DNA of 64,000 nt, taken from the IMG/VR virus record IMGVR_UViG_3300008114_000011; one strand, written 5' to 3'. The position numbers and the translations under genes are program-made. The stretch is from a virus (taxonomy: Duplodnaviria > Heunggongvirae > Uroviricota > Caudoviricetes). Each line of letters opens with the position of its first letter. Positions within the stretch are counted from its first letter, which is position 1. This document shows, in pieces, positions 9,781 through 62,276 of the stretch. The notes beneath the pieces were generated by a model. It worked only from the letters and a program-made list of their open reading frames with translations. It ran no database searches and was not told the origin of the DNA.

Positions 9781-9810
9781 AGTTTGAGTAGTCAATTAAC
9801 TACTCAAACT
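9781..9810. terminator. hairpin between convergent genes
   Basis: AGTTTGAGTAG-tcaattaa-CTACTCAAACT flanked by A-run / T-run. Confidence 0.45.
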
Positions 9811-10344
9811 AATATTATTTCCTACATAAAAAAGATAAGGAACACCACTTGGACTAGTTCCACTAACTGTCGGCGCACCATCCAAAGATGTCAATTTATT
9901 ATCTCTACAATCAAAAACATAAACCTTTTTTGGTGAACCTTCTAAAGATGTCAATTCATTTTTACTACAATCAAATCTTTCCACACCAATTTGTGGTGAT
10001 CCAACTAAAGTTGTTAATTGATTATTACTACAATTGAAATCCCCATTAATTTCTTTTGGAGCACCTTCTAAGGATGTTAATTGATTGTTACTACAATTGA
10101 AATCACCATTGACTTTATTAAACTTAACCGGTAACTTAGTTAGCTTTAAACCAGATAAATCAACATGACAATAAACATCAACAGATAAATCATCATTAAC
10201 TCTAAACCTTTTACCAATAGAGCTATCACCAATTAAATATAAATTACAAAGTCCAATCACTTTATTTTTAGCGGACTTTAACTTTTGTTCATCACTTTTT
10301 TCGAAGAAGTCAAAAAAACCTTCAAATGTTTTTAATTTTTTCAT
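9796..10344 (-). CDS. leucine-rich-repeat-like protein (~22-aa tandem repeats GDFNCSNNQLTSLEGAP) with MKKLKTFEGF N-terminus
   Basis: five tandem ~22-residue LRR-like units visible in protein and as ~66-nt DNA repeats. Confidence 0.65.
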   Translation of the reverse strand: MKKLKTFEGFFDFFEKSDEQKLKSAKNKVIGLCNLYLIGDSSIGKRFRVNDDLSVDVYCHVDLSGLKLTKLPVKFNKVNGDFNCSNNQLTSLEGAPKEINGDFNCSNNQLTTLVGSPQIGVERFDCSKNELTSLEGSPKKVYVFDCRDNKLTSLDGAPTVSGTSPSGVPYLFYVGNNISLSS

Positions 10345-10374
10345 TTCATTTATTTTTTTAAATATAATAATAAA

Positions 10375-10914
10375 TTATTTAAACTCTATAACAAACTTAA
10401 AATCATGTTTAAGTCCCACTATTTCACTTTCTGAAATTTTCTTTGAATATCTAAGTGAATTTACAGAGAAGTTTTCAGGTTTTAACCAATCTTGTTCACT
10501 ATATGTAAACATATAATAAGTAACCGAATAACCACTATCAGTTATTTTATTAGCAATTTCAAATAACTTCTTTTTATCAACCTTATCTAAAACTACATAG
10601 ATTGGTAAGTTTAATTTTTTTATATTCTTAGTTTTAATATAATCTGGATCATTTTTATAAAGGTATTCAATTGAATTTCCCATACTCAATAAATGAGCAC
10701 CTTTATCATTTGAATTATCAAAACTAGACTTTGATGTACTAACTAAATCACCTTCTTCAAAATTCAATTTAATCAATTTAACGCTTGGGTGGTTAAATGT
10801 AAACCTTCCTGGTGATGAATAGATAATAGCATCTGGTTTTATATTATTAAGTTCTTTTACTAAAGAAACTAAACTATCATTTGATAGTGACTCATATGTT
10901 TGTAAATATCTCAT
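10375..10914 (-). CDS. hypothetical protein (N-term MRYLQTYESL)
   Basis: ORF. Confidence 0.55.
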   Translation of the reverse strand: MRYLQTYESLSNDSLVSLVKELNNIKPDAIIYSSPGRFTFNHPSVKLIKLNFEEGDLVSTSKSSFDNSNDKGAHLLSMGNSIEYLYKNDPDYIKTKNIKKLNLPIYVVLDKVDKKKLFEIANKITDSGYSVTYYMFTYSEQDWLKPENFSVNSLRYSKKISESEIVGLKHDFKFVIEFK

Positions 10915-11210
10915 TATTCTTCATCATTATTTTCTGGTATCATATTACCTAAAGCATTAAAAATCTGAATACCATCAAAACCTTCAGTTCTTAATACATG
11001 ATAGAACTCAGCAAACTCTTGAGTTGAAAAATCTCTATTACCAAACTCAGCTTTAAATCTTTCGATAATTTCGGATGTTTTATCATCATTGATTACATTT
11101 TTCTTTCTTAAAAAATTGTCTAACTCTTTAGTTCTATCTGAACGTCTTTCATTTTCTTGATATGTTCCTCTATCACGTCCATAATTTTCAAATGTTTTAA
11201 TATTCTTCAT
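10914..11210 (-). CDS. hypothetical acidic small protein (N-term MKNIKTFENY)
   Basis: ORF; 3' ~40 nt duplicated at 16934-16970. Confidence 0.5.
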   Translation of the reverse strand: MKNIKTFENYGRDRGTYQENERRSDRTKELDNFLRKKNVINDDKTSEIIERFKAEFGNRDFSTQEFAEFYHVLRTEGFDGIQIFNALGNMIPENNDEE

Positions 11211-11258
11211 AATAATTTTTATTTTCTTTATATATTAAAAAGTAATTTTTATTTTTTT

Positions 11259-12672: not shown

Positions 12673-12674
12673 CT

Positions 12675-16987: not shown

Positions 16988-17560
16988 TTATACACATACT
17001 TGAAGAAGTGAACCTTTATTTAATAATACTACTAATTTACCATCAATATTTAACCAATTATTCATGATGGTTTCTTTACTCCATTCCCACGCCTCCTTCT
17101 TGTATATATTCAATAAAAAACCATATCTCTCAAAAAACGACCAGATTGAAGTGCTTACGTAAATTCGTCTATCTCTACTTTTATCATAAAAAATTATATT
17201 GTCACCTGGATTATACCTATAAAGAACACATCCAGGGTGATCCTTACTCTCAACTTTTTCCATATCAGAAAAGTTTTTATTTAACCAATCAATACATACA
17301 TTCTCTATTGGTTTATCAGTAACTATAATTCCTTTACTTGTTTTATGAGAGTAATATCCTTCCTCTTCTATCCATGATTTTAAATGGTTTATTTTATCTT
17401 CACTAGGTTCTTCACTAAATTCAAATAAACGAAACATAGATGTATCTCCGTACTTCTCATCAAAGGTAACCTCATCAACCTCTATTGGATCTAAAGCAGA
17501 TGTTACAATCCATTTAGGATCTTCTCCATCGAAGTTTTCAAATAATTTTAAGTATTTCAT
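16988..17560 (-). CDS. hypothetical protein with MKYLKLFENF N-terminus
   Basis: ORF; shared N-terminal decapeptide. Confidence 0.55.
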   Translation of the reverse strand: MKYLKLFENFDGEDPKWIVTSALDPIEVDEVTFDEKYGDTSMFRLFEFSEEPSEDKINHLKSWIEEEGYYSHKTSKGIIVTDKPIENVCIDWLNKNFSDMEKVESKDHPGCVLYRYNPGDNIIFYDKSRDRRIYVSTSIWSFFERYGFLLNIYKKEAWEWSKETIMNNWLNIDGKLVVLLNKGSLLQVCV

Positions 17561-17915
17561 ATTTCTATATATTATTTATTAAATGATTCAGATGGATAGA
17601 TTCATTAAATTTTCTTATCTTCATAAAGTATATATTAACTTTGTTTATTCTAAAAAAATTCATATCTTTATATAAACTAAAAATAGAATTATGAAATTGT
17701 CTCCATTTACCTCATTAGTAATTAGTATGATATTCACCATCATTTGTACAATGGTCGTATTATCACATATACACCAAAACTTCCCTAATTGTAAATAATC
17801 ATGAAAGAAGGAGTACAACCATGGCATATCATTTTATCAGTAGTTCCACTGGTTATTACCGTCATAATTCTAATATTCATAGTACTCAAAAGAATATCAA
17901 AAGACTTAGATTAAA

Positions 17916-25188: not shown

Positions 25189-25398
25189 ATGAAAGATTAC
25201 AAGAAAGGTGATGAATTCACATCTAAAAACTCAGGGACTATTTCAACAATAATAGAGATTGCATCGGAAGATGTCCTAAACTGGTACGGATTAGAAGGTC
25301 CAGCGTTCTGGATAAATGAGAATGGAAGCTCTCAATTAAGACTTTGTACCATAGAAGGCCTCAAAGAACTATTCATTATACCCGAAGAGAAAAAATAG
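25189..25398 (+). CDS. hypothetical small protein
   Basis: ORF (probable start MKDYKKGDEF). Confidence 0.4.
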   Translation: MKDYKKGDEFTSKNSGTISTIIEIASEDVLNWYGLEGPAFWINENGSSQLRLCTIEGLKELFIIPEEKK

Positions 25399-25474
25399 GT
25401 TTCTGACTTCGTGGAAAAATAGTGAACCTTCGTTAACTCAGGTACTAAACTTCGTTTAGAGTTTCTAAAGAAAC

Positions 25475-25500
25475 TACTAAAATCCGTGCGGATTTTAGTA
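25475..25500 (+). repeat. 26-nt element variant (TACTAAAATCCGTGCGGATTTTAGTA, near-perfect palindrome)
   Basis: copy 5. Confidence 0.7.
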
Positions 25501-25584
25501 TCATTAGCTTGTGATATACAGATAAAATCATTATCTTTATACTCACAGAGTGAGAGTATAAAATACTAAAACAAAATAAGAGAT

Positions 25585-26004
25585 ATGAACCTTGACACTA
25601 TAATAAAATCACAAATAATCGGATTAGAAATCGGAATAATAAACGTTATCAAAACAACCGAGTTTAACGTACACGCAATCGCAAACGAATTATCCGATAT
25701 ATTAGGTAAAGAAAATATCCAAATATTCAAAGTTGGTACCCACACAGGTATATCAATACCAGAAATCGTTAAACAATTCGATAACTTCGACTACTCTAAA
25801 CCAATCATAATCGTTACAAACAAAGACGCAATCTATAAACATATCATACCAAGAAACGGTAAAGTAATTCAATCTAAATGCCCAAAAACAGGCTTCCTAA
25901 TCCTAAACGATGTTAAATGGAAATTCACACGTTTCCAATCTACTTTCGAAGGAACAATAACTCAACTAAGAAGAGATTACCAATTAGAAACACTAATAAA
26001 TTAA
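25585..26004 (+). CDS. hypothetical protein with RRDYQLETLIN tail variant
   Basis: ORF. Confidence 0.5.
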   Translation: MNLDTIIKSQIIGLEIGIINVIKTTEFNVHAIANELSDILGKENIQIFKVGTHTGISIPEIVKQFDNFDYSKPIIIVTNKDAIYKHIIPRNGKVIQSKCPKTGFLILNDVKWKFTRFQSTFEGTITQLRRDYQLETLIN

Positions 26005-26019
26005 AAAATAGGTTAGGTG

Positions 26020-26093
26020 GGTAGCTCAACTGGAAAGAGCCTCTCATTAAGAGAGAGATTAAGGTTCGAATCCTGTCCCTTCTGACCTATACT
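26020..26093 (+). tRNA. tRNA-like element, possibly degenerate or partial (GTAGCTCAACTGG D-arm, GGTTCGAATCC T-arm, candidate TAA anticodon)
   Basis: D-arm, anticodon hairpin CTCTC-ATTAAGA-GAGAG and T-arm are recognisable but the acceptor stem pairs poorly. Confidence 0.35.
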
Positions 26094-26108
26094 AAACTTC
26101 AGAGAAGA

Positions 26109-26134
26109 TACTAAAATCCGCACGTTTTTTAGTA
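26109..26134 (+). repeat. 26-nt element, orientation A
   Basis: copy 6, directly after the tRNA-like element. Confidence 0.8.
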
Positions 26135-26348
26135 TCTTCTTTAGTTCTGATTGATCCGAGCCGCCCGAAATCACCGATTAAAATTGTTAAAAACCAGGTA
26201 AAAACCCAGTGGATTTTTTACTGAAAAATGACCCTCTGGAAACGTAAGCAGGTCAAGGCTTTCCGAGAGGTGTGTATATACAAATTGGTGCTGAAAATAA
26301 GGCTACTGGTAGAGAAAATGAAATGGCGATAGAGTTTACACAAAAATA

Positions 26349-26374
26349 TACTAAAAAACGACCGGATTTTAGTA
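26349..26374 (-). repeat. 26-nt element variant (TACTAAAAAACGACCGGATTTTAGTA)
   Basis: copy 7. Confidence 0.65.
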
Positions 26375-26389
26375 TGTTGAAAAATAAGG

Positions 26390-26415
26390 TACTAAAAAGT
26401 GTGCGGAATTTAGTA
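26390..26415 (-). repeat. 26-nt element variant (TACTAAAAAGTGTGCGGAATTTAGTA)
   Basis: copy 8. Confidence 0.6.
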
Positions 26416-26571
26416 TTAACTAAAAGTGAAGTATGACTTTGAAATCGTTCCATTCAAATTAAATCAAAACTAATTCAAATTCTATAAACGTAAAATTGTT
26501 CACATTACACTATAATTTATTTTTATTATTCGTATAGAGTTCTTATATTTATTAAATCAAAACGAAAATAT

Positions 26572-26913
26572 ATGAATGTATTTGATCTAAAAAACAAAAA
26601 GGGATATTTCTTTGACGGATTTACACTTCTTTCTGGTTATATCGGTGGTGGTGAATCAGTATATAGTAGATACTTATCAGGTAAAGTTATTTATGACAAA
26701 CCAGTTTGGTTTTCCAGAACTTGGAGACACGGTTATAAATACGATAATTGGGATTTTAGTAATTTTGAATTCATACCATACGATACATTCAAAAACTTAG
26801 AAACTTATCTTAAATTCATTGAGAAAGCAACCTACAATGAAATTAAAATGTACTTCAAATTGAAAGAGGTAATGAAGTCAGAAGACTTTATAGAATGTGG
26901 GATTAAATTATAA
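26572..26913 (+). CDS. hypothetical protein
   Basis: ORF. Confidence 0.45.
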   Translation: MNVFDLKNKKGYFFDGFTLLSGYIGGGESVYSRYLSGKVIYDKPVWFSRTWRHGYKYDNWDFSNFEFIPYDTFKNLETYLKFIEKATYNEIKMYFKLKEVMKSEDFIECGIKL

Positions 26914-27144
26914 AATAATATGAAACAGATTAATTTATTACTGGATAAGATTTCTAACATTCTTCTGAGTTAGAGGTTATAGTTTATACCAAGGGTATAG
27001 ATTTATTAAATGAGATGTATTAAAATTTTTTTACCTAACGGTAAGAAGTAGTTATTTTTTATTTATATTTGTAGAAATATCTCACTATGAAAGGACACAA
27101 TAGTTATGTGGGAATTAGGTTTATTTAATGGTAATTTATAAGTT

Positions 27145-27609
27145 ATGGAAGGTAGATTATTTAAGGTTGATGATGTTTGGAGGTTAGTCAATTCAAAGAA
27201 TTCAATAATAGCAACGAGTGATTTAGAGTATCAGAGAGCTTTTAGGTGTTATAAACTATCTAATGATAATTGTGAGTTTATATATGATTATGAAAAAATA
27301 TACAATGATTTTAAATTAAATAATCAGTATTGGTTTGCTAAACTTAAAGATGGTAGTATTTTATCTTGTGGATATGGATTAGTTGAAAACGAATTTAATG
27401 GTGATACTTGGTTTGAAATTGGTAAAATAATACCAGATGAGTTGAAAAGTATAGATGGGTATTATACTTTTGATGAGACTCATGATTTAATTAATAATAA
27501 TGGTATAAAAATTGGTAAATTAAGTGATATTGGATATAATAGTCATCCAGATGAAAATAGTTTTGTTCTGATACCTAAATCTGATATTATTGAAACTTAT
27601 TTCAAATAG
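27145..27609 (+). CDS. hypothetical protein
   Basis: ORF; TAnnTTTG box at ~27070. Confidence 0.45.
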   Translation: MEGRLFKVDDVWRLVNSKNSIIATSDLEYQRAFRCYKLSNDNCEFIYDYEKIYNDFKLNNQYWFAKLKDGSILSCGYGLVENEFNGDTWFEIGKIIPDELKSIDGYYTFDETHDLINNNGIKIGKLSDIGYNSHPDENSFVLIPKSDIIETYFK

Positions 27610-28803: not shown

Positions 28804-28920
28804 TTTTTTTAAGAAGGGTGTAAAATTTTTATTGTATATAACGGTTGAGAATATGTTTCGTTTCAATGATAAATATTCTTTGTTAGATTGCGTTTCAATG
28901 TGATCTAACGATACTCAGAT

Positions 28921-28948: not shown

Positions 28949-28968
28949 TTAAAAATAATAAACGAGTT

Positions 28969-29217: not shown

Positions 29218-29226
29218 CGGTCACAG

Positions 29227-44152: not shown

Positions 44153-44410
44153 ATGAAAGTTAAATGTATTTCCAATCAAAAGAGATGGGGTGGGTCAGTT
44201 AGTACCTACCCTTTAGTAGTTGGTAAAGTATATAATGTTATATCAACTGGTCACGTACCATTTGTTTCGAGAAGATATGATGATTATAGTGGACCTTTCT
44301 ATAAAGTCACTAATGAAGATGGTGTAGAGGGTAATTATAGTGATGATATTATGAGACCATTAAATAAGTCTGAAATGAGAGACGAATTGTTAAAAGAGTT
44401 GGGTATATGA
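44153..44410 (+). CDS. MKVKCI-type member with RDELLKELGI tail
   Basis: family motifs. Confidence 0.65.
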   Translation: MKVKCISNQKRWGGSVSTYPLVVGKVYNVISTGHVPFVSRRYDDYSGPFYKVTNEDGVEGNYSDDIMRPLNKSEMRDELLKELGI

Positions 44411-44625
44411 TTGGAATTATTTGGGTTTGTGTTGACAATACTGCTAATGAACATAGACTAACTGTTGGTAAAAAATATACCGAGATTTTAAATAAATTTG
44501 CTGATCTTGATTGTATTTTAATAAAAGATGATAATGGTATGATATCAGAGGTTTATCAACCTGGTTTCTTTATTAAAATTGATGAATGGAGAGATAGTCA
44601 GTTAAGAAAAATTGGAATAAAATGA
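44407..44625 (+). CDS. family member (LTVGKKYTEI, EWRDSQLRKIGIK)
   Basis: family motifs. Confidence 0.65.
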   Translation: MIGIIWVCVDNTANEHRLTVGKKYTEILNKFADLDCILIKDDNGMISEVYQPGFFIKIDEWRDSQLRKIGIK

Positions 44626-44858
44626 TAAAAGTAATTTGTATAAATGAACCAGATATTTCTTATACAAGAAATAAAAAGTTAGAATTGAATAAACAATACA
44701 ACGCTAAAACCAATGAGGTTTCTTTAGGTTTTTCATATGGTATTGTTTATATGTATAAGATATTTGATGGTAATAACTATCTTGGTGAGTATTATAGACG
44801 TGATTTTCTCACTGTTGAAGAATATCGTGATAAAAAATTAGAATCAATTTTAGACTAA
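44622..44858 (+). CDS. MIKVICI-type member (tail RDKKLESILD)
   Basis: family motifs. Confidence 0.6.
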   Translation: MIKVICINEPDISYTRNKKLELNKQYNAKTNEVSLGFSYGIVYMYKIFDGNNYLGEYYRRDFLTVEEYRDKKLESILD

Positions 44859-46404: not shown

Positions 46405-47193
46405 ATGGGAAAACATTATTTATATAAACATATAAGAAATGATAGTAATATCATTTTCTATATTGGTATAGGGACAAAAAATAAATCTGATATAACTTAT
46501 AATAAGTATAGTAGGGCTTTTAATAAAAAAAGGAGAAATAAACATTGGTTAAATACAGTTTCTTTATTGAATGATGATTATTCAATTGAGATAGTATGTG
46601 AGACCGATGATTATGAATATGTGAAAAGTCTAGAAAAAAATCTGATTTTATTTTATGGTAGAAAGGATCTAGGTTTAGGTAATTTAGTAAATATGACAGA
46701 TGGTGGTGATGGTCAAATAAAAAGAGTTTGGAGTGAAGAGTCTAGGAAGAAGGCATCTAAATCACACATTGGTAAAGTAATTGATGGTGAGTGGAAGAAA
46801 AATTTAATAAAAGCTAGATTTGGAAATAAATCACATTCTGGTCGAACTTTTTCAGATGAACATAGAAAAAAAATATCAGAAGCAGGTAAGGGAAAAATAC
46901 CTTGGAATAAGAATAGAGAATTATCCAATGATGAGATTGAAAAAATAAAAAAGGGTATAGAAGAAAATAAAAAAATTTGTTATATTTGTAATGTTGAGTG
47001 TGACTCTGCTAATTATAATAGATGGCATGGTGATAAATGTGAGATGGGATCTATTTTAGATAGGGTTGATGAGATAAAGGATTTATTGTATAATAAAGTT
47101 CCTTTACTTAGGATTAGTAGAGTTTTAGGAATAAAGTATAAATTATTGAGAAGATTAAAAGAGTCAGTTTTATTTAAAGAAGAATTATTATGA
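46405..47193 (+). CDS. GIY-YIG homing endonuclease with NUMOD3 repeats (I-TevI-like)
   Basis: YLYKHI..IIFYIGIG..R..NKHW GIY-YIG core; repeated SEESRKKASKSHIGK / SDEHRKKISEAGKGK. Confidence 0.8.
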   Translation: MGKHYLYKHIRNDSNIIFYIGIGTKNKSDITYNKYSRAFNKKRRNKHWLNTVSLLNDDYSIEIVCETDDYEYVKSLEKNLILFYGRKDLGLGNLVNMTDGGDGQIKRVWSEESRKKASKSHIGKVIDGEWKKNLIKARFGNKSHSGRTFSDEHRKKISEAGKGKIPWNKNRELSNDEIEKIKKGIEENKKICYICNVECDSANYNRWHGDKCEMGSILDRVDEIKDLLYNKVPLLRISRVLGIKYKLLRRLKESVLFKEELL

Positions 47194-47963
47194 AATATTT
47201 AAAAAAGAAATATCCGGATGGTAGCTTTTATGTTGAAGTAGAGGATTTTAGTGAACCTATAATAACCGAAAGAATAAATTCATATGAGGACCTTTTTTTC
47301 ATAAAATCCATCAAAGAGGTTTGTGATTTTAATGGAATTAAAGATGTTGAGTTATTTATACCATGTATGTTTCAACAGCAACATGACCGTAGATTTTTTG
47401 ATAATCAATCATTTGAACTAAAGATAGTTTGTGACTTTATCAACTCATGTAATTTTAGTAAAGTTTATGTTTTCCATCCACATTCTGATTCCACTCAAAT
47501 GGGATTGAATAATATTAGAGTTGTTGATAATTCTAAATTTATATCAAGTGTTTTAAGTAGAATTGATTCTAATCCAATATTATTTTCAACAGATGCTGGT
47601 TCATTTAAATGGATAAATAAATTAGTTGATAAAATAGGATTTAATGGTGATGTTTATTGTGCTAGTAAGTCTAGAGATTTAAAAACACATGATTTGAAGC
47701 AAGTTATTGATTGTTCTGATTTTGGTGGTAGAGATATATTAGTATTGGATGATTTATGTGTAAAGGGTGGTACATTTATAGGTCTATTGAATATGTTAAA
47801 GGAGAGAAATGTTGGTAAGATATACTTAGCAGTTAGTCATATGACTATTCAAGATCCAAATACAAGTCTTGAGTGTTATGATAAGATATTTACTACTAAT
47901 AGTAAGTATGACTATTATGTTCTAAATAATTTAGAATTGATTGATTATAAAAGTATTATATAA
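47190..47963 (+). CDS. ribose-phosphate pyrophosphokinase (Prs)-like phosphoribosyltransferase-fold enzyme; possibly a phage Adps-type ADPR pyrophosphokinase
   Basis: FHPHSD (cf. Prs MDLHADQ), PRPP-binding loop ILVLDDLCVKGGTF, LAVSHMT. Confidence 0.65.
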   Translation: MKYLKKKYPDGSFYVEVEDFSEPIITERINSYEDLFFIKSIKEVCDFNGIKDVELFIPCMFQQQHDRRFFDNQSFELKIVCDFINSCNFSKVYVFHPHSDSTQMGLNNIRVVDNSKFISSVLSRIDSNPILFSTDAGSFKWINKLVDKIGFNGDVYCASKSRDLKTHDLKQVIDCSDFGGRDILVLDDLCVKGGTFIGLLNMLKERNVGKIYLAVSHMTIQDPNTSLECYDKIFTTNSKYDYYVLNNLELIDYKSII

Positions 47964-47968
47964 AAGAT

Positions 47969-48826
47969 ATGAAAAACTTTAAAATAGGAGGTGTTCCCGA
48001 ACACTTCAACTTACCTTGGCGTTTAGCCATTGAAGAAGGAAGATTAAATGATTTAGATGTAAATCTACACTGGTCTGATATGACTGGTGGTACTGGTCAA
48101 ATGATTAAAGGTTTACAAGCAGGTTCAATTGACATCGCAGTTCTTCTTACTGAAGGAATTACAAAAGCAATTTTAGATGGTTTGGATGCCAAAATATTAA
48201 CAGTTTATGTTAAAAGTCCATTACGATGGGGTATTCACGTACCTTTTAATTCAGAAATGAAAACTTCTGATGATATCAAAGGTAAAACATTTGCTATCTC
48301 AAGAGAAGGTTCTGGTTCACACTTAATGGCTTATGTAAACTCATTTCAAAGAGGTTGGAATACCGATGATTTAAAGTTTGAAGTTGTTGGTGATGTTTAT
48401 GGTGGTTTATGGGCTTTAGAGAATGGGCAGTCTGATGTTTTCTTATGGGAAAAGTTTACAACTTATCCATTTGTTAAAGCAGAGAAATGTAAATGTATCG
48501 GTGAAGTTGTAACACCTTGGCCCTGTTTCGTAGTTGCTGTTAGAAACGAGATCTATGAACAACACAAAGATTTGTTAAGAGAAGTTATGAAAGTCGTTGG
48601 TGGTGTCGCAAATGAGATTAAAAACCCATCATTACATGATTTCTATTCAAATGAAATTTCTTGGAGATATAACTTAGAAAAAGATCAAGCTTCTACTTGG
48701 TTGAATGAAGTAGAATGGAACTACACTGGTGATAATGATGTTAATGATTATGAATTAGTAGTTGATTATCTACAAAAAATATCTCTTATTGAAGAAAATA
48801 AAGACTGGAAATCTAAATTATTTTAG
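47969..48826 (+). CDS. NMT1/THI5-like (periplasmic-binding-fold) protein, tentative
   Basis: FKIGGVPEHFNLPW N-terminus resembles the NMT1/ThiY/THI5 family; weak. Confidence 0.35.
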   Translation: MKNFKIGGVPEHFNLPWRLAIEEGRLNDLDVNLHWSDMTGGTGQMIKGLQAGSIDIAVLLTEGITKAILDGLDAKILTVYVKSPLRWGIHVPFNSEMKTSDDIKGKTFAISREGSGSHLMAYVNSFQRGWNTDDLKFEVVGDVYGGLWALENGQSDVFLWEKFTTYPFVKAEKCKCIGEVVTPWPCFVVAVRNEIYEQHKDLLREVMKVVGGVANEIKNPSLHDFYSNEISWRYNLEKDQASTWLNEVEWNYTGDNDVNDYELVVDYLQKISLIEENKDWKSKLF

Positions 48827-48862
48827 AGGTAATAGGTTCTTATATATATAAGTATAAAAGAA

Positions 48863-49846
48863 GTGATACTTATGTTAGAAGAATTTATAAAAAAATCGAT
48901 AGTTAAATTTGGTAATAAATTTGATTATAGTAAGTTTAATTATGTGAATGCTAAAACTAAATCTATAATCATATGCCCAGTACATAAAGATTTTTTTCAA
49001 ACACCTGATAAGCATTTACGTTCAAAATATGGATGTAAATTATGTTGGGAAATTGAAAAAAAGAAAATAAAAAGAGATTATGTAAAGGGTCCAAATATCA
49101 TTTCAAAAGATGAGTTCTTGGGTAGATGTTATGAGAAGTTTGGTGATAAATTCAAATACGATTTATCAAACTACAATGGGTTTGTTGGTGATTATATAAA
49201 AATAACTTGTTCAGAACATGGTGATTTTTATACAAAACCGAATATACATTTATTAAGTAATAACACCTATGGGTGTAAATTATGTGCTAATGATAATAGA
49301 GTACTCAATAAAACACAAACCTATGATGATGTTATAGAAAAATTATCAAATATTTATAATGATAAATATATTTATCCTGAATATAATAGAGATACTTATA
49401 TTAACAAGAGGTCGAAAATAGATATAATTTGTCCGGATCATGGGCTATTTGTTAAGAGTGTTCAAAAACACCAAAGCGGTCAATATTGTTTTGAGTGTAA
49501 AATTAAGAATATGGTTTTTAATAATATTTTAGTTGGTGGTTACACTGAGAAATTATTTGAAGATAAACCAGAATTAAAGGATAAAAAATCTAAATTATAT
49601 TATTTGAGAATAAATAATGGTGATTATTATAAAATAGGAATAACAACAGTTTCGGTTGAAAGTAGAATAAAGTCATTGAAGAGTAAATCTAAAGGTTTTA
49701 TAAAAGATGTTGAGATTTTATTTGAAAAGGAAATGTCTTTATATGAATCATATATCATGGAGAGTAAAATATTAAATGATAATATAGATAGTAGAGTTTA
49801 TAAAAAATGGAGTACTGAAATTTTCAACAAAAATGTTTTGGAATAA
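48863..49846 (+). CDS. homing-endonuclease-like protein: three zinc-ribbon modules plus C-terminal T5orf172/GIY-YIG-like domain
   Basis: three CP-xHG-x-F..H..GC-xxC repeats; KLYYLRINNGDYYKIGITT..R C-domain. Confidence 0.5.
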   Translation: MILMLEEFIKKSIVKFGNKFDYSKFNYVNAKTKSIIICPVHKDFFQTPDKHLRSKYGCKLCWEIEKKKIKRDYVKGPNIISKDEFLGRCYEKFGDKFKYDLSNYNGFVGDYIKITCSEHGDFYTKPNIHLLSNNTYGCKLCANDNRVLNKTQTYDDVIEKLSNIYNDKYIYPEYNRDTYINKRSKIDIICPDHGLFVKSVQKHQSGQYCFECKIKNMVFNNILVGGYTEKLFEDKPELKDKKSKLYYLRINNGDYYKIGITTVSVESRIKSLKSKSKGFIKDVEILFEKEMSLYESYIMESKILNDNIDSRVYKKWSTEIFNKNVLE

Positions 49847-49881
49847 TAGAATAATTATTATCTTTATAAAAAATAAAAACT

Positions 49882-51462
49882 ATGAACTTTTTAGAAATTT
49901 ATTATACCGATGTGTATAAAACAGGACACAAACCAATGCTACCAGTGGGTAGTGTTTTGATGCAATCAAATTTTACACCAAGGAGTGGTAAATATAGCAA
50001 TTGTCCAAATAATGGTAAAATTGTTTCGTTTGGTCAACAAATGATGGTGAGAAAAATGAAACAAGATTGGGATGTTAACTTTTTTCAAAGACCAATTGAA
50101 GAAATCGATCAATTTGGGAAGGATTTAACAGATATGTTAATGCTGAGTGATCCTTTTGATGTTACTCACTTCAAAGAACTACATAAATTGGGATATCTTC
50201 CGATTGAGTTTAGAGCAATCACTGAAGGTGAGAGAATTCCGTATAAAATACCATTATCGACTATCGTTAATACTAAACCTTTAAATGGTCAAGTTTTTGA
50301 CTGGATAGTTAATTACTTAGAAACTATTAATTCTGCTGAATCTTGGCAAGCACCAACTTCAGCGACGCTATCATTCGCATTAAGAGAGTTATCAACAAAG
50401 TGGATCACAAAAACAGATCCGGAGAGTTTGTGGTTTGTTGACTATCAAAATCATGATTTCTCAATGAGAGGTATGGGTGGTAAATCAGCTATTGTTAATA
50501 GTGGTTTAGGATTTGCTACTTGTTCGAGAGGTTCAGATACACTACCTGTTATACCAGCTGCTAGAATGTATTATGATGAAAAAGATGTTTGTATCAACTC
50601 TGTTATCGCATCTGAACATGCTATTATGTGTTCATTGACTGGATTTTTCATTAAGACTAAAGATGGTTCTTGGGATAAGGTTGGTAACTTTGAAGTTGAG
50701 ACATTTAGGTATTTATTAAGAACTTTTCCAACTGGAATATTGTCATTAGTATCTGATACTTGGGATTTATGGAGAGTTATTACGGAGTACTGTCAAATAT
50801 TAAAAGATGAAATTTTAGCAAGAGATGGCAAACTTGTTATCCGTCCTGACTCTGGTGATCCAGTAGATATTATTTGTGGTAGCATAACTCCAGATATGTC
50901 TTCTTATAATGAAAGATACAAACAACCTCAATATAAAGGTGTTATCGAGTTATTATGGGATATCTTTGGTGGTACTGAAACATCAACCGGATATAAAAAA
51001 TTAGACTCACACATTGGTGCTATCTATGGTGACTCTATTAACTATAAGAGAGCTGAGAGTATTTATGAAAGATTATCAGCTAAAGGATTTGCAACAACAA
51101 ACATCGTTCTCGGTGTGGGATCCTATTCACTTCAGATGGTAACACGCGATACACATGGTATGGCTCAAAAAGCAACCTACATCGAAATTGAAGTTGATGG
51201 TGATGTTGAAGGTATCAACATCTTTAAAGACCCTATCACTGATGATGGTACTAAAAAATCAGCAACTGGATTACTAAAAGTAGTTAAAGTTGATGGTGAG
51301 TTTACATTAATTGATAAATGTACTTGGGATGATGTTAACTCGGAAGATAATGAGCTGAAAGTTATCTTCAAAGATGGTAAGTTCTATAACGAAACGACTT
51401 TGACCATCATACGTGGGAAGTTAGAGGATCTTGTTTCTAAAGAACAACCTGAATTAGTTTAA
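49882..51462 (+). CDS. nadV: nicotinamide phosphoribosyltransferase (NAMPT/NadV) family
   Basis: TDVYKTGH, IRPDSGDPVD and NIFKDPITDDGTKKSATGLL match NAMPT blocks. Confidence 0.85.
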   Translation: MNFLEIYYTDVYKTGHKPMLPVGSVLMQSNFTPRSGKYSNCPNNGKIVSFGQQMMVRKMKQDWDVNFFQRPIEEIDQFGKDLTDMLMLSDPFDVTHFKELHKLGYLPIEFRAITEGERIPYKIPLSTIVNTKPLNGQVFDWIVNYLETINSAESWQAPTSATLSFALRELSTKWITKTDPESLWFVDYQNHDFSMRGMGGKSAIVNSGLGFATCSRGSDTLPVIPAARMYYDEKDVCINSVIASEHAIMCSLTGFFIKTKDGSWDKVGNFEVETFRYLLRTFPTGILSLVSDTWDLWRVITEYCQILKDEILARDGKLVIRPDSGDPVDIICGSITPDMSSYNERYKQPQYKGVIELLWDIFGGTETSTGYKKLDSHIGAIYGDSINYKRAESIYERLSAKGFATTNIVLGVGSYSLQMVTRDTHGMAQKATYIEIEVDGDVEGINIFKDPITDDGTKKSATGLLKVVKVDGEFTLIDKCTWDDVNSEDNELKVIFKDGKFYNETTLTIIRGKLEDLVSKEQPELV

Positions 51463-51548: not shown

Positions 51549-51932
51549 TTATTCAAATATAGATACTTTTATTTGTGGATTTCTAATAAGTTCTCCATAT
51601 TCCATACCATCATCATATGTTATTACACATTCGTAATTTGGATATTCATCTTTTACTTTTTTAATACCACTATTTATATCATTCATTATATCTTTTGTAA
51701 TTTGGAGATCTTTTATATAATCTTCAATTTTCATAAGAGGTGATCCATCCCAATTATTTCGATAATCTACTTTTGGCTCTGGTAACTTTTCAAACTCTAT
51801 TAAAACAAAATCTTCATCATCAATATATTTGATTTTATCAGACTCTATTAAATCAATAAAGCATAATTTTACATAGTCGTAGTCAAAACTATCATCTTCA
51901 ATATTCTCATTAAACTTTTTTAAGTGTTTCAT
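51549..51932 (-). CDS. hypothetical acidic protein with MKHLKKFNEN N-terminus
   Basis: ORF; shared N-terminal motif. Confidence 0.5.
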   Translation of the reverse strand: MKHLKKFNENIEDDSFDYDYVKLCFIDLIESDKIKYIDDEDFVLIEFEKLPEPKVDYRNNWDGSPLMKIEDYIKDLQITKDIMNDINSGIKKVKDEYPNYECVITYDDGMEYGELIRNPQIKVSIFE

Positions 51933-51947
51933 ATTTATCTTTATATT

Positions 51948-53663
51948 TTATGTACAATCTGGACAATCAATTCTACCATCACCATCACATCGATTACACC
52001 AAATTCTACCTTCACCATCACAATCACCACACTCTCTGGTACCATCACCACCACATCTATCACATTCGTTAGTACAGTCACCCTCACATTCAGAACAATC
52101 TTGTTTACCTGATCCACTACAATAAGAACACTCATTTCCCTCATCATCTTCTCCAGTTCCATCACAACTAGAACAGTCTTCTTTTCCAGTTCCTTCGCAG
52201 TTATCACAAGGTAGAGTACCGTGTCCATCACAATTAGAACATTCTACTTCACCAGAGGCACCACATTCTTCACAATCATATCTTCCATCACCCTCACATT
52301 CATAGCAATCAATTCTTTCATCACCACCACATCTTTCACATTCTTCTCCATTACCACCATCAGTTTCTCTTAGTTCGTAATAGTTACTATTTATTACTAA
52401 TTTTTGCTCATTTGTTAAGAATCCATAATCCCATTCATAATAACAAAGAGTATCTAAATAAGGGTATTTACTAAAGCCGTTCATTTCTAAATCAACTTTA
52501 ATTGTTCCGATGTTTGAATCAGAACCATTAAACATAAACTCTTCCTCTGAAATATTTTGATTTTTCTTATAAACATATCCCATTTTAATTGCGTATTTAA
52601 TAAACAATTCTTGGTCTGGTGAATTACTCACATAAATTCTATCCATAAATGGTTTTCCTTCTGATTCGGTATGTTTTACTAAATTATATTTCGTTATTAC
52701 TCCTTCATCATCACCACCATCCCATGGCATATATTCTGGTTTTTTCCAAAGAAGAGCTCTACCTATAATTTTAGTTGGATCTTCTTTAGATTTTAATATA
52801 ACTAATCCAACACTTTTAGGATTTTTAGAATATATGTTTAAGTAGTCTTGACATCTAGCATGTCTCATACAAGATGCTCCTAAAGTATGATTACCACCTC
52901 GATAATAATTACCTTCATAATAAAACTTTTTAATATCATCACCTTCAACCAATTCAAAATCAGAGAATATATTTTCTTTTTTAGCTTTAGTGGCAATTGA
53001 AAACTTAGTTACAAAATCTTCAACTTCAGTTCCTTTAACTTCTTTACCAGCTTTCTTCAATAGTGATTGAACGAATGATCCAACTCTAACTTCTTGTGAG
53101 GAAACCGCTCCCTCACCAATTTTAAGACCATAATCTTCAATGATAAGATCAATATTCTCACCACTTCTATTAAATCTTATATGATAAATTTTACGTCCTT
53201 GATCAAGATACCATTTTAATCTATTTTTTACATCCTCATCATTAAAATCATCAATACTTGTTATCTGTTTAGTAATAGTAGCTTTTTGGTTTCTTTGAAG
53301 TAATTCATACCAATTCAAAAAACCTTTTTCGACTCTTGGATCTTCAAATAATTTAGCAAATGATGTAAATATTTCTTTTGATAAGATAGACAATGATGCG
53401 CCAAAATCAATTATAACACAAGAGTTTTTAGACTTTTTATCGGATTTAAATTGTATAAAGTTGTCTTTATCATCAGAAATATCAATAAAGTTTGTATCAA
53501 CATCAACGTCAACACCCTCTAAATCTAAAATCTCTTTTGAAAGTGGACTATTAACCGACTTCAAAATTTCTTTGAAATCATCTTTATAAACCATATTACC
53601 TTCAAGTAGTAAATTGAGTTTACTCTCGTTTAGGAAACTATCATATCTTAAAATATTACTCAT
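51948..53663 (-). CDS. hypothetical protein, paralog of 61155..62276, with C-terminal array of ~12 DnaJ-type CxxCxGxG zinc-finger units
   Basis: shared core GxSCM..GRALLWKKP..FMDRIYV..KYPYLDTLC; tail CERCGGD..CYECEGDG..CEECGASG.. Confidence 0.6.
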   Translation of the reverse strand: MSNILRYDSFLNESKLNLLLEGNMVYKDDFKEILKSVNSPLSKEILDLEGVDVDVDTNFIDISDDKDNFIQFKSDKKSKNSCVIIDFGASLSILSKEIFTSFAKLFEDPRVEKGFLNWYELLQRNQKATITKQITSIDDFNDEDVKNRLKWYLDQGRKIYHIRFNRSGENIDLIIEDYGLKIGEGAVSSQEVRVGSFVQSLLKKAGKEVKGTEVEDFVTKFSIATKAKKENIFSDFELVEGDDIKKFYYEGNYYRGGNHTLGASCMRHARCQDYLNIYSKNPKSVGLVILKSKEDPTKIIGRALLWKKPEYMPWDGGDDEGVITKYNLVKHTESEGKPFMDRIYVSNSPDQELFIKYAIKMGYVYKKNQNISEEEFMFNGSDSNIGTIKVDLEMNGFSKYPYLDTLCYYEWDYGFLTNEQKLVINSNYYELRETDGGNGEECERCGGDERIDCYECEGDGRYDCEECGASGEVECSNCDGHGTLPCDNCEGTGKEDCSSCDGTGEDDEGNECSYCSGSGKQDCSECEGDCTNECDRCGGDGTRECGDCDGEGRIWCNRCDGDGRIDCPDCT

Positions 53664-53753
53664 AACTTATATATAAAAATGTTTAACTTAAAAAAATTTT
53701 TTCACATTTTATGAAAAGAAACTTTTCGATTTTGATAATAAATATATACTATT

Positions 53754-54587
53754 ATGGAAAAGGGATATATTTATAAAATAATTTCACCAACTAACAGGAT
53801 TTATATTGGTAAAACTTTTAATTTGGAAAAGAGAGTAAGATCTTATAAAGGTTTATGGTGTAAAAAACAAAGAGTTTTGTATAAATCATTAGTTAAATAT
53901 GGTTGGGATAAACATAGTTTTGAGATACTATTTGAAGATTTTTGTAGTGAGGAATATTTATCTGAGTTGGAGACAAAGTATATAATTGAATATAATAGTT
54001 TTCGAAGATACAACTATAAATTTGGAATGAATTTAACTCTTGGTGGTGAAGGATCTTGTGGATTAAAACATACGGATAAAACTAAAAAAATGATATCCGA
54101 AACTAAGAAAAAGGCTAAAAGAACGGAGAAAGAGATTTTAGCAAGTGAAAAAAGAAGAGGGACTAAGGTTTATAAAAGTGAAGAGTGGATTAAAAATAAC
54201 GCAGAGAGTATAAAAAAACCAATATTGCAATATGATTTGGATGGTAATTTTATCAAAGAATGGAAAAGTGCTAAAGATATTGAATTGGAATTGGGATTTT
54301 CTAGGAAAAACATTTCCTGTAATGTTAGATATAAAAGTAATAGTGCATTTAACTTTATATGGATTTTTAAAAATGCCGATCTTAAAATAGATGATATTCT
54401 AATAAGGAGAAAAAGAGAAAGAAAAAAACCAACTAATAGTATTAAGGTTTTAGATATTGAATGTAATATTGTCTATGATAGTATAATGGATGTAGTTAAA
54501 AATACTAACATGACATATGCTAAAGTTTATCGAGTTATATACAGTAATGATGAGAATAAAAAGTATATTATATATGAAGAGAAATAA
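53754..54587 (+). CDS. GIY-YIG homing endonuclease with NUMOD-type DNA-binding repeats
   Basis: GYIYKI..IYIGKT..R..Y core; HTDKTKKMISETKKKAK repeat. Confidence 0.75.
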   Translation: MEKGYIYKIISPTNRIYIGKTFNLEKRVRSYKGLWCKKQRVLYKSLVKYGWDKHSFEILFEDFCSEEYLSELETKYIIEYNSFRRYNYKFGMNLTLGGEGSCGLKHTDKTKKMISETKKKAKRTEKEILASEKRRGTKVYKSEEWIKNNAESIKKPILQYDLDGNFIKEWKSAKDIELELGFSRKNISCNVRYKSNSAFNFIWIFKNADLKIDDILIRRKRERKKPTNSIKVLDIECNIVYDSIMDVVKNTNMTYAKVYRVIYSNDENKKYIIYEEK

Positions 54588-59033: not shown

Positions 59034-59136
59034 CTATCTTCACTTTATGAAGAAAACCATTCTAATATTAGGATTTTTTTTAGGAGCTATTGCCGGTATG
59101 ATAGCTTATAAATTAGAAAAACTATTCAAATGAGTA

Positions 59137-61158
59137 TTAAACCCATTTATCATTTTTTCTTTTAAGAAGTTTATCTCCTTCTAATTTATAAAACTTATAT
59201 TTTTTATCAATAGAAGTTATAACATAATATTTATCTGGTCCTAATTCCTTATATCTTTTCATATTACCAGTTACCTTAACACCATCCACTTCACCACCCA
59301 TTTGTTTGGCATAAGCCCATTTAATATAGTGTGGATCAACGTGTCTCGATCTTAATTTATCTTGTTCAATTGATGTTTCTAATGTAGATAATAAGTGAAT
59401 AAAAACTATTTCATATCCATTCTCTCTTGCTAAATCAAATATATCCTTAATGTGTTCATAACCAGTATCAGTATATTCTTTACCAGCACCGGTTGTATCA
59501 TAGATAAAGTTTTGACCAGTTTTCATAAAACCTTTCATCTTCATTAAGTTTAATTCAGACGCATTTTTTGTTCTACCACCTTCTTCTTTTTCTTTTCCTT
59601 TATAATAAACATTTGGATCTTTTGTGTAAAGAAGTGAAATATCATCAGTTGAGAAGTCTTTAATGTTTGTATTTTTTGTATGTAAATAATTATTCACAAA
59701 GTGTGAATTATGTAGTATTGTTGGTAAGTTACCACCTATGAAGTTATGATGTTTATCTAAGACTATATCATAAACATAATCATTATGTTCTATTGTTGAT
59801 ATATTAGTTATTTTATCAAAAAATAAGTTATTGTGATGATTAATATATGTTTCTGGTATATAAACATTATTCTCATTTAAAAAATTACATATTTTATTAA
59901 AACGTTTTTTCGTTATTACTCTTCTATATTTATAACTTCTAGTAAATCTATATCCAGTTTCATCTTCTGGTATAAATTCGGTAATAAAAAATAAAAAAAC
60001 AAATTTAAATAATAAGGATTTTTTATCATATATAGTCAGGGTAACAAGTGATGATTTTAATTTATTTGGAGAAATATTAAATAAATATATTAGATGTAGT
60101 AGAAAAAAAATTAAACCAATTGAAAAAACTAATACAAATATTGGTGGATTTATACCAAATGATGACATGGTGGAATTAATTTATAATAATAAATTAAACA
60201 TTAAAAGTGCATAAGATAAATCAGTAGCCATTTCATATGACGATGTGTAATATTCAACTCTATTTTCAAATACAGAACCATCACAAGATAAATAACTACC
60301 TAAGAAATGTTTTAATGATTCACTGTTTGATATTATATCATCCGGAATTCTAACTTTATGTGATTTGTTGCCAAAAATATAATCACCACATATTTCAGAA
60401 ATATTTGAAATAAAATCATATTTATCTTTTTTAAATCTTCGATTTCCTAATTTAATATCATCTGAATATTGAACACTATGTCTTATTTTTTTAGATTTTA
60501 CTGTTAATATTTTATTTTCTTTTTCGACACATTTTCTAAAATCATCTATTATATCAATATCTATATTTGTTAGTGTTAGAAATTTACTATTTTTATTTTT
60601 TATAAAATTACCATCACTTAACGAATAACCAATAATCCTTGATAATTCATTACTTATTTTTGATTTATTATTAAAAGTGTTATTTATTATTCTAGGTCTG
60701 GCTAACTTATCATCTATTGTTATTTCTGATGATTTTTTCCAAATAATATCACCGTTTTTTTCTAAAACTAATAATGGGTGTATAGGTGTAACTTTTATAT
60801 CAACACCCGTTTGTGTTTTTATATTTATTAACTTTTCTGAATAGCCTCTATATAAACTCGAAATCTCATTTTCCACAAACTCACCACTATCATTTAATGA
60901 TTTAACATATAAGTTTTTAACAGGAATATTTATTTCACCAATTTTTGATTCGGTGTTATAGTTATCTATCAATTTACCAATTTTAGTCATTTTATTATTC
61001 ACTAAAATGGGTGTATTATATTCTAAGCACTTTCCAATACCGGGAGCACCGATTAGGAAAACAGCTAATCCTTTTTCTTTATCTAATATTTCTGGAATTG
61101 GTTCATTCTTTGACCATTCTTCTTTTATGTAATTGAAAAATTCTTTTATATATCTCAT
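59137..61158 (-). CDS. P-loop kinase-like gene interrupted by a LAGLIDADG intein; intein reading frame contains an in-frame TAA (60181-60183)
   Basis: Walker A GAPGIGK|C-LEYNTPI (intein start) ... VYDIVLDKHHNFIGGNLPTILHN|S (intein end), restoring GAPGIGKS. Confidence 0.6.
59707..61029 (-). mobile_element. intein with LAGLIDADG homing-endonuclease domain (~441 codons)
   Basis: blocks A (CLEYNTPI), C (RIIGYSLSDGNF), E (HFLGSYLSCDGSV), F/G (VYDIVLDKHHNF..ILHN). Confidence 0.65.
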
Positions 61159-62276
61159 ACTAATCTATTTATTTTAGTTTCAATTCCTTTTCTTTTCAAA
61201 AAGATGTGACCATCTCCACAAACATCACAGATTCCATTGTAACTTGAGAAACATTCACCATCACATTCATAACATTGATCATCACCACCATCCGTTTCAT
61301 GTAACCAATTACAATTCTTAGATGGTAAGTTTGATAACTTTTTACCTTTTAAGAAACAAAGTGTATCAATGAATGGATATTTATTGAAGTTTGATTTTTC
61401 TAATTTGACAGATATTTCGCCAAAAAATTCCTTATTATCATATAAAAAACAAACATTTGTTTCCGTATGACTATTCATTTTCTGTTTATATAAAAATTTA
61501 TTCTCATTAGCAAAATTTTTAAACTTTATAACATCAGAATCATTATTTACATAAACTCTATCCATAAAATATTTAGCATCACAAGGTGACTTTTTTAGTT
61601 TCCAAACTAAAGCTCGACCACAAATTTGATCAGTTTCTTTATTGTGTAGAATTAAAAGACCAACTTTATTATCATTCTCCACATATAGTTTTAATTTACC
61701 CCTAGCATCACCCATACAAGATCCTCCTAAAGTCCCATTAGTGTTTAAGTAATTAGATGTGTTATAATATTTGATAATATCATCACCTTTAACAATTTTA
61801 AACTGCCATTTATCATTTATTTCTAATGATTTATATGCGTTCACAAAGTCTTCAACATCTTTATCGGTTAAATTAAAATTAATAGATTTTGAACTTTGTA
61901 TCATAGACACAATAGATCTCAAAACTCTACCAATTTTCATTTCAGATCTCCCTAATGTGTATGGCAAATCTGGATCTTCATCATTATCCCAATCTTTAGG
62001 AACTTTATCATTCATAGTGAAACTAACCATATCAACTCGATTGGTAGTATCAAAAAAGTTTTGAGTTATTGAATCATCTTTTAATTGATGAAATGGATCT
62101 GCTTTTCTATTTAAGAATTCATCAATGATTTTAGAAATATCACCCACTCTACCAGATTGTCTAGATAATTCGGAAATCTTTCTATGAAATTCGGATGTCG
62201 AATATAAATACCCCTCTAATAAGATGACTAAATCATTATTTAATTTTTCTAAAATAAATTGGTTATACTTTCTCAT
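61155..62276 (-). CDS. hypothetical protein, paralog of 51948..53663 N-domain with short Cys-rich tail
   Basis: GGSCMGDARG..GRALVWK..FMDRVYV..KYPFIDTLC; tail CYECDGEC..CDVCGDG. Confidence 0.55.
   Translation of the reverse strand: MRKYNQFILEKLNNDLVILLEGYLYSTSEFHRKISELSRQSGRVGDISKIIDEFLNRKADPFHQLKDDSITQNFFDTTNRVDMVSFTMNDKVPKDWDNDEDPDLPYTLGRSEMKIGRVLRSIVSMIQSSKSINFNLTDKDVEDFVNAYKSLEINDKWQFKIVKGDDIIKYYNTSNYLNTNGTLGGSCMGDARGKLKLYVENDNKVGLLILHNKETDQICGRALVWKLKKSPCDAKYFMDRVYVNNDSDVIKFKNFANENKFLYKQKMNSHTETNVCFLYDNKEFFGEISVKLEKSNFNKYPFIDTLCFLKGKKLSNLPSKNCNWLHETDGGDDQCYECDGECFSSYNGICDVCGDGHIFLKRKGIETKINRLV

Follow-up and report, generated by a model that had tools for sequence, protein, structure and literature searches.

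Unrelated proteins of a huge-phage clade share a short N-terminal tag that may act as a capsid-targeting-like packaging signal

The question raised by this stretch of DNA is why proteins with nothing else in common should open with nearly the same ten residues. The stretch, called the window here, comprises the 64,000 nucleotides (nt) of the IMG/VR record IMGVR_UViG_3300008114_000011, assigned to the Caudoviricetes; with 27-31% GC, a dense array of small plus-strand open reading frames (ORFs) and one tRNA-Leu(taa), it reads as phage DNA. A preliminary description had reported a decapeptide shared by about ten unrelated genes of the window and had compared it with the capsid-targeting sequence (CTS) of phage T4. 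We find that the shared decapeptide is real and that it extends to approximately 16 genes, ten of which match the core pattern ^M[KR].[LI][KQ].[FY] and about six of which carry degenerate versions. Its consensus, M-K-[Y/H]-[L/I]-K-x-[F/Y]-(0-3 residues)-E, stands at the N-terminus of unrelated proteins and is referred to below as the tag. All eight N-termini quoted previously are present in the window. The minus-strand genes had been correctly picked out, although the numbers attached to them are their low, stop-codon ends; the N-termini themselves are encoded at 10344, 11210, 17560, 34317, 41150, 51932 and 61158. Likewise, the plus-strand peptide MKYLHRYNES exists, although it starts at an internal ATG at 4420 and not at 4414. 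Members that had been missed are 4143 on the plus strand (MKYIKNFKML), 10375 on the minus strand (MRYLQTYESL), 35723-35884 on the plus strand (MRYLKLYEAY) and 17565-17624 on the minus strand (MKIRKFNES...), and degenerate tags are carried by the minus-strand genes 51948 (ILRYDSFLNES), 61155 (MRKYNQFILEK) and 62295 (MLKIKTYNQF).

The similarity is far beyond what the controls produce. A strict form of the pattern was found in 8 of 166 window ORFs, as compared with approximately 0.01 in Markov-simulated sequence, and at none of the 304 internal methionine positions of the window. With the core pattern, ten matches were obtained among 144 curated window genes, whereas the number in 5000 trials, with residues shuffled within each N-terminal position, averaged 0.85 and reached 5 at most. 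In IMG/VR, the codon pattern for MKYLKxFE occurs in at least 120 stretches, as opposed to a single one for a permuted pattern of identical composition.

Several lines of evidence argue that it is the peptide, and not the AT-rich nucleotides encoding it, that is under selection. The logo of tags other than the search seeds reads M-K-[Y/H]-[I/L]-K-x-[F/Y]-E-x-[F/I/Y/L] with every synonymous codon in use, and Glu8 is conserved in 76% of these non-seed tags although it lies outside the selection pattern. In LR756502, a complete 642-kb genome of an uncultured phage in which 25 window genes have homologues at 30-58% identity, synonymous codon fractions are equal in tags and in untagged N-termini, and within the window three silent differences separate the codons of the identical octapeptides that start at 17560 and 34317. 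Orthologues of the 40518 gene exchange residues while keeping the physico-chemical pattern (MKYLKSFKES, MRYLKNFDFF, MEIKKFDTFLEG, MIKRYNQFVEN), and in the 16988 family none of 24 homologues departs from the tag, even where overall identity falls to 38%. AlphaFold predicts confident folds for the 40518 and 16988 families, with a mean predicted local distance difference test score (pLDDT) of 88 and 80, respectively, and in both of the two families the tag lies outside the fold (residues 1-10 in 40518 and 1-9 in 16988, pLDDT <50); the 210-aa cargo of 40518 has an ADP-ribosyltransferase-like fold in the predicted structure. Since a terminal peptide is here conserved yet unfolded on unrelated cargos, the tag is, on these comparisons and predictions, a short linear signal. 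It spans 8-11 residues with Lys and Glu throughout and with acidic or polar residues next, and it lacks the hydrophobic core of 10-20 residues after a basic N-region by which Sec, Tat and lipoprotein signals are recognized.

The tag is also widely distributed. Nearly all IMG/VR matches listed are at the starts of real ORFs, on contigs of 17-33% GC, many of which exceed 100 kb. In 596 Gb of bacterial and archaeal genomes from GTDB, 39 stretches contain the pattern. Only a small number coincide with the start of an ORF, and of this number several are on AT-rich contigs of metagenome-assembled genomes with two to four tags, which look like mis-binned phage. Judged by this distribution, the tag is virus-specific and widespread. 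In 1.02 Mb around the IMG/VR matches listed, 309 core-bearing ORFs fell into 168 unrelated families once the tag had been removed. About 20 of 150 cargo-family representatives match Pfam, among them leucine-rich repeat (LRR) proteins, C39 and M43 peptidases, lysozyme, SET, methyltransferase, zeta-toxin-like proteins, AAA_33 kinases, OmpA, pterin dehydratase and DeoC, and with Pfam and PHROGs the matches of the tagged window proteins were limited to LRR and NUDIX. LR756502 carries the core on 74 of its 956 genes (7.7%) and a looser form on up to 124. Full-text searches of a paper library, one for the tag strings and another on capsid targeting in huge or jumbo phages, brought up no relevant description.

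When 12 kb of the window was compared with the phage collection in a search for near-identical DNA, no match to a deposited phage was obtained. In IMG/VR, a look for the genome to which the window belongs gave a 68%-identical relative only, and the exact NAMPT protein of the window is found on contigs of at most 50-200 kb. A 629-kb metagenomic contig encodes a homologue of one tagged window protein at 74% identity, and because of this homologue and the 25 genes shared with LR756502, we place the window, on sequence similarity, in a huge-phage clade of 630-735 kb which includes LR745206 and LR756501-4 and has T4-type head genes. Of the 120 tag-bearing loci among the matches listed, 104 have one or more homologues in common with LR756502, and head or tail genes of that phage occur in several. 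The closest relatives of the clade's gp23-like major capsid protein (MCP) are found in Lak megaphages and jumbo phages of Bacteroidota, and beyond those it is nearest to Sphingomonas phage PAU and T4-like cyanophages. Bacteroidota are the likely hosts of the clade.

Most tagged genes are preceded by a short box, (T)TTAATATATA, whose end lies typically 4-5 nt before the ATG, and all tagged genes of the window belong to units headed by the AATATATA box. Tagged genes without a box of their own are downstream members of such units, which by their start positions run from 11210 to 10914 and 10344, from 53663 to 51932, from 62906 to 62276 and 61158, and from 4143 to 4420. The tagged genes and their units are the following.

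4131-4403, plus strand: box 4131-4138, a 4-nt spacer and the 86-aa gene 4143-4403, starting MKYIKNFKMLKE
4420-4692, plus strand: tagged gene MKYLHRYNES with its ATG at 4420, second in the unit behind the 4131 box
9796-11236, minus strand: three-gene unit with box 11229-11236
10914-11210, minus strand: first gene behind box 11229-11236, MKNIKTFENY
10375-10914, minus strand: second gene behind box 11229-11236, MRYLQTYESL
9796-10344, minus strand: third gene behind box 11229-11236, MKKLKTFEGF, an LRR protein
16988-17573, minus strand: box 17566-17573, a 5-nt spacer and a 190-aa gene starting MKYLKLFENF
17565-17636, minus strand: remnant with box 17629-17636, a 4-nt spacer and a 19-aa ORF consisting of the tag only, MKIRKFNESIHLNHLINNI and stop
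28894-29217, plus strand: gene 28969-29217 with tag core LKRFNES at residues 7-13 and box 28940-28947
29206-29644, plus strand: gene 29276-29644 with tag core IQSFEEF and box 29248-29255
33886-34329, minus strand: box 34322-34329, a 4-nt spacer and a 143-aa gene starting MKYLKLFEKF
35711-35884, plus strand: box 35711-35718, a 4-nt spacer and a 53-aa ORF starting MRYLKLYEAYFKKE
40518-41162, minus strand: box 41155-41162, a 4-nt spacer and a 210-aa gene starting MKYLKSFKES
51549-53675, minus strand: two-gene unit with box 53668-53675
51948-53663, minus strand: 571-aa gene with the degenerate tag MSNILRYDSFLNES and a C-terminal CxxC array
51549-51932, minus strand: second gene behind box 53668-53675, MKHLKKFNEN
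60181-62918, minus strand: unit with boxes 62911-62918 and 62281-62288
62295-62906, minus strand: NUDIX gene, MLKIKTYNQF
61155-62276, minus strand: MRKYNQFILEK gene, paralogue of 51948
60181-61158, minus strand: P-loop protein starting MRYIKEFFNYIKEE (MRYIKEFFNY), interrupted by an intein

Tag and box are strongly associated, with an odds ratio of 22.7 in the window (p=1.5e-6) and of 6.9 in LR756502 (p=2e-12), and from this association follows the preference of tagged genes for the minus strand, which had been noted previously and which is genuine (odds ratio 7.8, p=3e-4) yet secondary. In LR756502, the AATATATA box is located 4-29 nt upstream of the terminase, portal, protease/scaffold, MCP, gp15-like and gp25-like genes. 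Because it precedes these structural genes, the box can be read as the late promoter of the clade and as the counterpart of T4's TATAAATA. A -7 promoter element of Bacteroidota (TAnnTTTG) within the tag codons was also considered and was dropped upon inspection of the sequences, as its register does not fit. The remnant ORF at 17565-17624 on the minus strand lies directly upstream of the 17560 gene with its stop codon inside the next box, and resembles a tandemly duplicated copy or a cassette cut short; the unit of the 35723-35884 ORF sits right behind a terminator-like hairpin. Three plus-strand genes around the nicotinamide adenine dinucleotide (NAD)-salvage genes described below (46405-47193, 48863-49846 and 53754-54587) have the AATATATA box upstream and no tag, and two of these are GIY-YIG homing-endonuclease-like while one is of the DUF723 type (Pfam on an identical gene). 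On contigs of approximately 22% GC and 180-330 kb, a second upstream motif is found which ends in AAAT[AT]TAA[CT][AT]T at the ATG, often as GCAAATAAATTTAACAT. It precedes 97 ORFs, 81 of them tagged (loci including L001, L002, L016, L021, L025, L029, L059 and L104), and perhaps marks another class of promoter used by a sister group.

LR756502 has its head genes in T4 order, namely a T4-type large terminase, Gp20 portal, protease/scaffold and Gp23 capsid (Pfam E-values of 1e-57 for Portal_T4 and 4e-28 for Gp23). When a profile of three protease-domain sequences was compared with the PDB, T4 gp21 (5JBL) was the sole significant match (E=9e-4), and in the profile alignment the motifs GE-x-DHP and SSR (His, Ser) line up with the active-site region of gp21. 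The protease continues into a fused scaffold-like region, in which a 14-residue repeat, SEY[IL]AENLDKNI-Y, occurs about 12 times in tandem (LR756502 225272-227371, which is 25272-27368 of locus L166), and each repeat holds [IL]-A-E, the cleavage motif of T4 gp21. The same protease-scaffold architecture, with 11 repeats, is present in loci L078 and L085 (L085 673-2763), in which a tagged gene with its box at +4 comes directly after the MCP gene. As a separate observation, a protein of about 510 aa is encoded beside the capsid gene (L085 5047-6582, L092 988-2529, LR756502 229975-31351), whose motifs look by eye like those of an M28/M20-type peptidase while Pfam gives no match; in L085 and L092 it has a tag-like start, MNL[LF]K[YF]xQIFE, with the box at +4, and the LR756502 homologue lacks the tag.

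It has been established that the T4 CTS, MKTYQEFIAE, is removed by gp21 after the Glu, and that residues 4 and 7 (Tyr4 and Phe7 in IPIII) serve in targeting and residues 8 and 10 in processing (PMC9026906, PMC8442874). Positions 4 (L/I) and 7 (F/Y) are also the most conserved, selected core of the tag. Among the LR756502 tags, 62 of 74 have a Glu at position 8, 9 or 11 and 72 of 74 have one within positions 8-14; the commonest P3-P1 triplets are IFE, FNE, YNE and LFE, most often with Ser next. The tags of the window offer [LI]-x-E sites in the form of LFE (16988, 33886), LYE (35723), ILE (61155), LNE (51948), LKE (4143) and IKE (60181), and other hydrophobic-x-E sites as TFE (9796, 10914), TYE (10375), FKE (40518) and FNE (51549). 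Both the tag and the T4 CTS are N-terminal peptides of about ten residues on unrelated proteins, and both begin with Met-Lys and have a hydrophobic position 4, an aromatic position 7 and a terminal Glu. Relatives of the window have, like T4, a head module of the gp20/gp21/gp22-like/gp23 type, and the tag goes with a putative late promoter as the T4 CTS goes with a late one. In addition, one cargo, that with the ADP-ribosyltransferase fold, recalls the packaged Alt protein of T4.

The comparison with T4 capsid targeting has survived every test that we ran, in that the tag is conserved at the peptide level, lies off the fold, is virus-specific, and goes together with a late-type box and with the head module of the clade. 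Our preferred reading, held with moderate confidence, is that the tag may be a CTS-like packaging signal. According to this model, the tag would sit on the N-termini of late-expressed accessory proteins and would dock its cargo onto the scaffolding core of the assembling prohead; a gp21-like prohead protease would then cut after the conserved Glu, and the mature cargo would be retained in the head and ejected into the next host with the DNA. The late timing, scaffold binding, cleavage and packaging of the tagged proteins are steps that we infer from the sequences. T4 holds about 1000 internal protein molecules per head (PMC8442874), and by rough scaling a 640-kb head could have room for a few thousand, so that space does not argue against the packaging model.

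A number of points weigh against this reading. P3 is L or I, as it is in T4, in 35 of the 74 LR756502 tags, about half, and F, Y or T in the rest, and identity of the tag with MKTYQEFIAE is limited to M1, K2 and F7. The 74 tagged genes of LR756502, about 8% of its genes, and the 168 families far exceed the handful of CTS proteins in T4 and, indeed, any known CTS repertoire, and metabolic cargos such as pterin dehydratase, DeoC, NUDIX and RNA ligase are unexpected inside a capsid. The phages here also differ from T4 in having another host lineage and genomes four times larger. The match of the N-terminal domain of the 699-aa LR756502 protein to Peptidase_S77 is weak (E=4.6e-4) and below the gathering score, and with this protease domain as a single query, phmmer gave no match in the PDB. 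The window itself has no head genes, the machinery being taken from relatives at 30-58% identity, and the late-promoter role of the AATATATA box is deduced from the genes that it precedes. A cultured relative bearing the tag was looked for and none was found; Tenacibaculum phage PTm1, over its first 50 kb, contains neither the tag nor the AATATATA box. Its relation to the T4 CTS is, as far as the sequences indicate, one of analogy or very remote divergence, and the tag is a separate sequence family.

Two other kinds of system invite comparison. The phages phiKZ and SPN3US are, like the clade described here, large phages with many head-loaded proteins, in which a prohead protease trims after Glu; to our knowledge, their proteins have the common cleavage motif S/A/G-x-E and no common N-terminal decapeptide, and they belong to a different lineage. 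The targeting peptides of encapsulins, which are HK97-fold shells, and of microcompartments resemble the tag in that a short terminal peptide off the fold addresses unrelated enzymes into a shell. However, those systems are cellular or domesticated, in most cases encapsulin peptides sit at the C-terminus and microcompartment peptides are longer, amphipathic helices, and no proteolytic removal or ejection takes place.

Of the other explanations, the one that fares best, although we consider it rather unlikely, is that the peptide is a signal with a destination outside the capsid, which might be another late structure or phage factor, an assembly chaperone, or a membrane or compartment, or that it serves as a degron for turnover. 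Peptide conservation, off-fold position and modularity would fit any short linear motif, and 74 tagged genes in LR756502 together with metabolic cargos would be easier to understand for a general sorting or stability tag. However, no known system of such a kind uses such a tag, whose shortness and charge do not suit a Sec, Tat or lipoprotein signal, and there would be no explanation for the T4-type protease and scaffold, for the conserved Glu behind a hydrophobic residue or for tagged genes lying next to the MCP gene.

It is improbable that the first ten codons serve to optimize the translation of leaderless or near-leaderless late mRNAs and that the peptide is a by-product. N-terminal codons do affect initiation and early elongation, Bacteroidota have been reported to use Shine-Dalgarno sequences little, and many tagged genes have their box 4-5 nt from the ATG. 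Yet synonymous sites in the tags are as free as in other N-termini, 41 of the 74 tagged genes in LR756502 and five in the window have no abutting box, and tagless genes (a gp15-like gene, a 482-aa protein and homing endonucleases) share the box and its spacing, while the hydrophobic/aromatic/Glu pattern outlasts amino-acid replacement.

We give slightly less credence still to the idea that promoter and tag together form a DNA cassette which provides homology for recombinational shuffling, in the manner of T4-type mobile promoter cassettes. The tandem promoter-plus-tag remnant at 17565-17636, the mosaic of 28969 and 29276 with its 100%-identical blocks (see below), the tandem arrays of tagged genes and the AAAT[AT]TAA[CT][AT]T motif that accompanies the tag on 81 of 97 ORFs in the contigs of about 22% GC would be in agreement with such a cassette. 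On the other hand, identical tags diverge at silent sites, which is contrary to DNA-level homogenization, genes within operons keep the tag without a promoter, and an AT-rich stretch of 24-30 nt with variable third positions makes poor recombination homology. Finally, the caveat raised in the preliminary description, that the N-termini are a compositional artefact of AT-rich codon usage, can be dismissed, because even though K, Y, L, F, N and I are favoured in a genome of 28% GC, the Markov simulations, column shuffles and permuted pattern gave 10- to 100-fold fewer matches or fewer still.

Apart from the tag, a second leader, ENLNISDVSES, had been described on the adjacent genes 28969 and 29276. 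The shared segment exists, in the form of a 34-nt block that is 100% identical at 29011-29044 and 29318-29351 and is confined to these two genes; its interpretation as a leader peptide is not supported, as the block is conserved as nucleotides and forms a hairpin arm. The two genes also share a 27-32-nt promoter block, again 100% identical, and between the two shared blocks the 5' untranslated region and the first 13 codons have diverged. The promoter block and the ENLNISDVSES block are mutual inverted repeats, with the following arms.

28894-28936 and 29009-29051, plus strand: hairpin arms of gene 28969, RNA fold dG -36.5, z -3.6
29206-29245 and 29315-29351, plus strand: hairpin arms of gene 29276, RNA fold dG -42.6 kcal/mol, z -6.5

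The box, the ATG and the primary tag (LKRFNES and IQSFEEF, respectively) lie between the arms of the predicted stems, which are approximately 36-40 bp long; the 3' arm, which encodes ENLNISDVSES, corresponds to codons 15-27 and pairs with sequence upstream of the gene, and the ATG lies in a loop of about 70 nt. Because the block is the 3' arm of a hairpin which encloses the late promoter, ENLNISDVSES is probably best explained at the nucleic-acid level, and a role as a peptide signal is improbable. Both genes share their orientation with upstream, presumably early, plus-strand genes, and since the 5' arm is located upstream of the late-type box, only read-through transcripts could form the stem. 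By analogy, the hairpin probably silences read-through early transcripts of 28969 and 29276. In T4, an inhibitory RNA hairpin surrounds the late promoter of gene e and that of I-TevI (PMC3014915), and the 5' stem arm upstream of the late-type promoter is a feature that 28969 and 29276 have in common with them. In contrast to the T4 genes, the start codon is left in the loop and is not sequestered inside the stem, and cleavage of the double-stranded RNA stem is therefore as plausible as blocking of the ribosome site. A flanking hairpin was also considered as a general trait of tagged genes and was rejected; in the window only 28969 and 29276 stand out, and such hairpins are rare in LR756502.

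Some further features of the window deserve mention. The minus-strand region 59137-61158 encodes a P-loop kinase-like gene which is broken after GAPGIGK-C by an intein with LAGLIDADG-like motifs, and this intein spans two ORFs (60181-61158 and 59137-60168), in a stop, frameshift or split arrangement. The minus-strand paralogues 51948-53663 and 61155-62276 share a conserved domain in the centre and an array of CxxC motifs at the C-terminus, and the family is present in 9-16 copies per genome in LR745206 and LR756501-4, with a shorter homologue in 72-kb Cellulophaga phages. A NAD-salvage set is encoded at 47190-51462 on the plus strand and at 62295-62906 on the minus strand. It comprises a phosphoribosyltransferase-family protein (weak Pribosyltran match, obtained with an identical gene), a NAMPT with 45% identity to that of Tenacibaculum phage PTm1, and the NUDIX hydrolase at 62295-62906 on the minus strand, which has a 72-residue N-terminal extension that opens with the degenerate tag. 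A large family of 63-90-aa paralogues starting MK[VA]ICI..., with ...GK.Y inside, is scattered in the plus-strand arrays of small genes (members include 1269-1499, 3091-3306, 4698-5432, 8566-8835 and 44153-44858), and two neighbouring 99-aa paralogues on the plus strand, 31647-31946 and 31943-32242, both start MTLEELR(D/E)(R/K)(P/S)LEEKV.

Should the tag prove to be the packaging signal that we favour, what would be new is the T4 principle carried by another sequence, in phages of a distinct and much larger lineage, and with an unprecedented number of cargos. More tentatively, we suggest that T4-like huge phages may have expanded capsid targeting into a general delivery system, in which about 70 late proteins per genome would be tagged into the head and a large, rapidly exchanged set of effectors, from more than 160 families across the clade, would be injected with the DNA; these families include ADP-ribosyltransferase-like, LRR, peptidase, kinase, methyltransferase and lysozyme proteins. 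Even with another destination, the tag would be a virus-specific linear motif on approximately 8% of a proteome. As a packaging signal, it would allow the proteins injected by uncultured 600-kb phages to be read directly from their genomes, and candidates for effectors of anti-defence and host takeover could be listed in this way. A short portable tag of this kind could also be used to load foreign proteins into large capsids, and the capsid-targeting principle of T4 would turn out to be of ancient origin, to tolerate changes of sequence and to extend to dozens of cargos.

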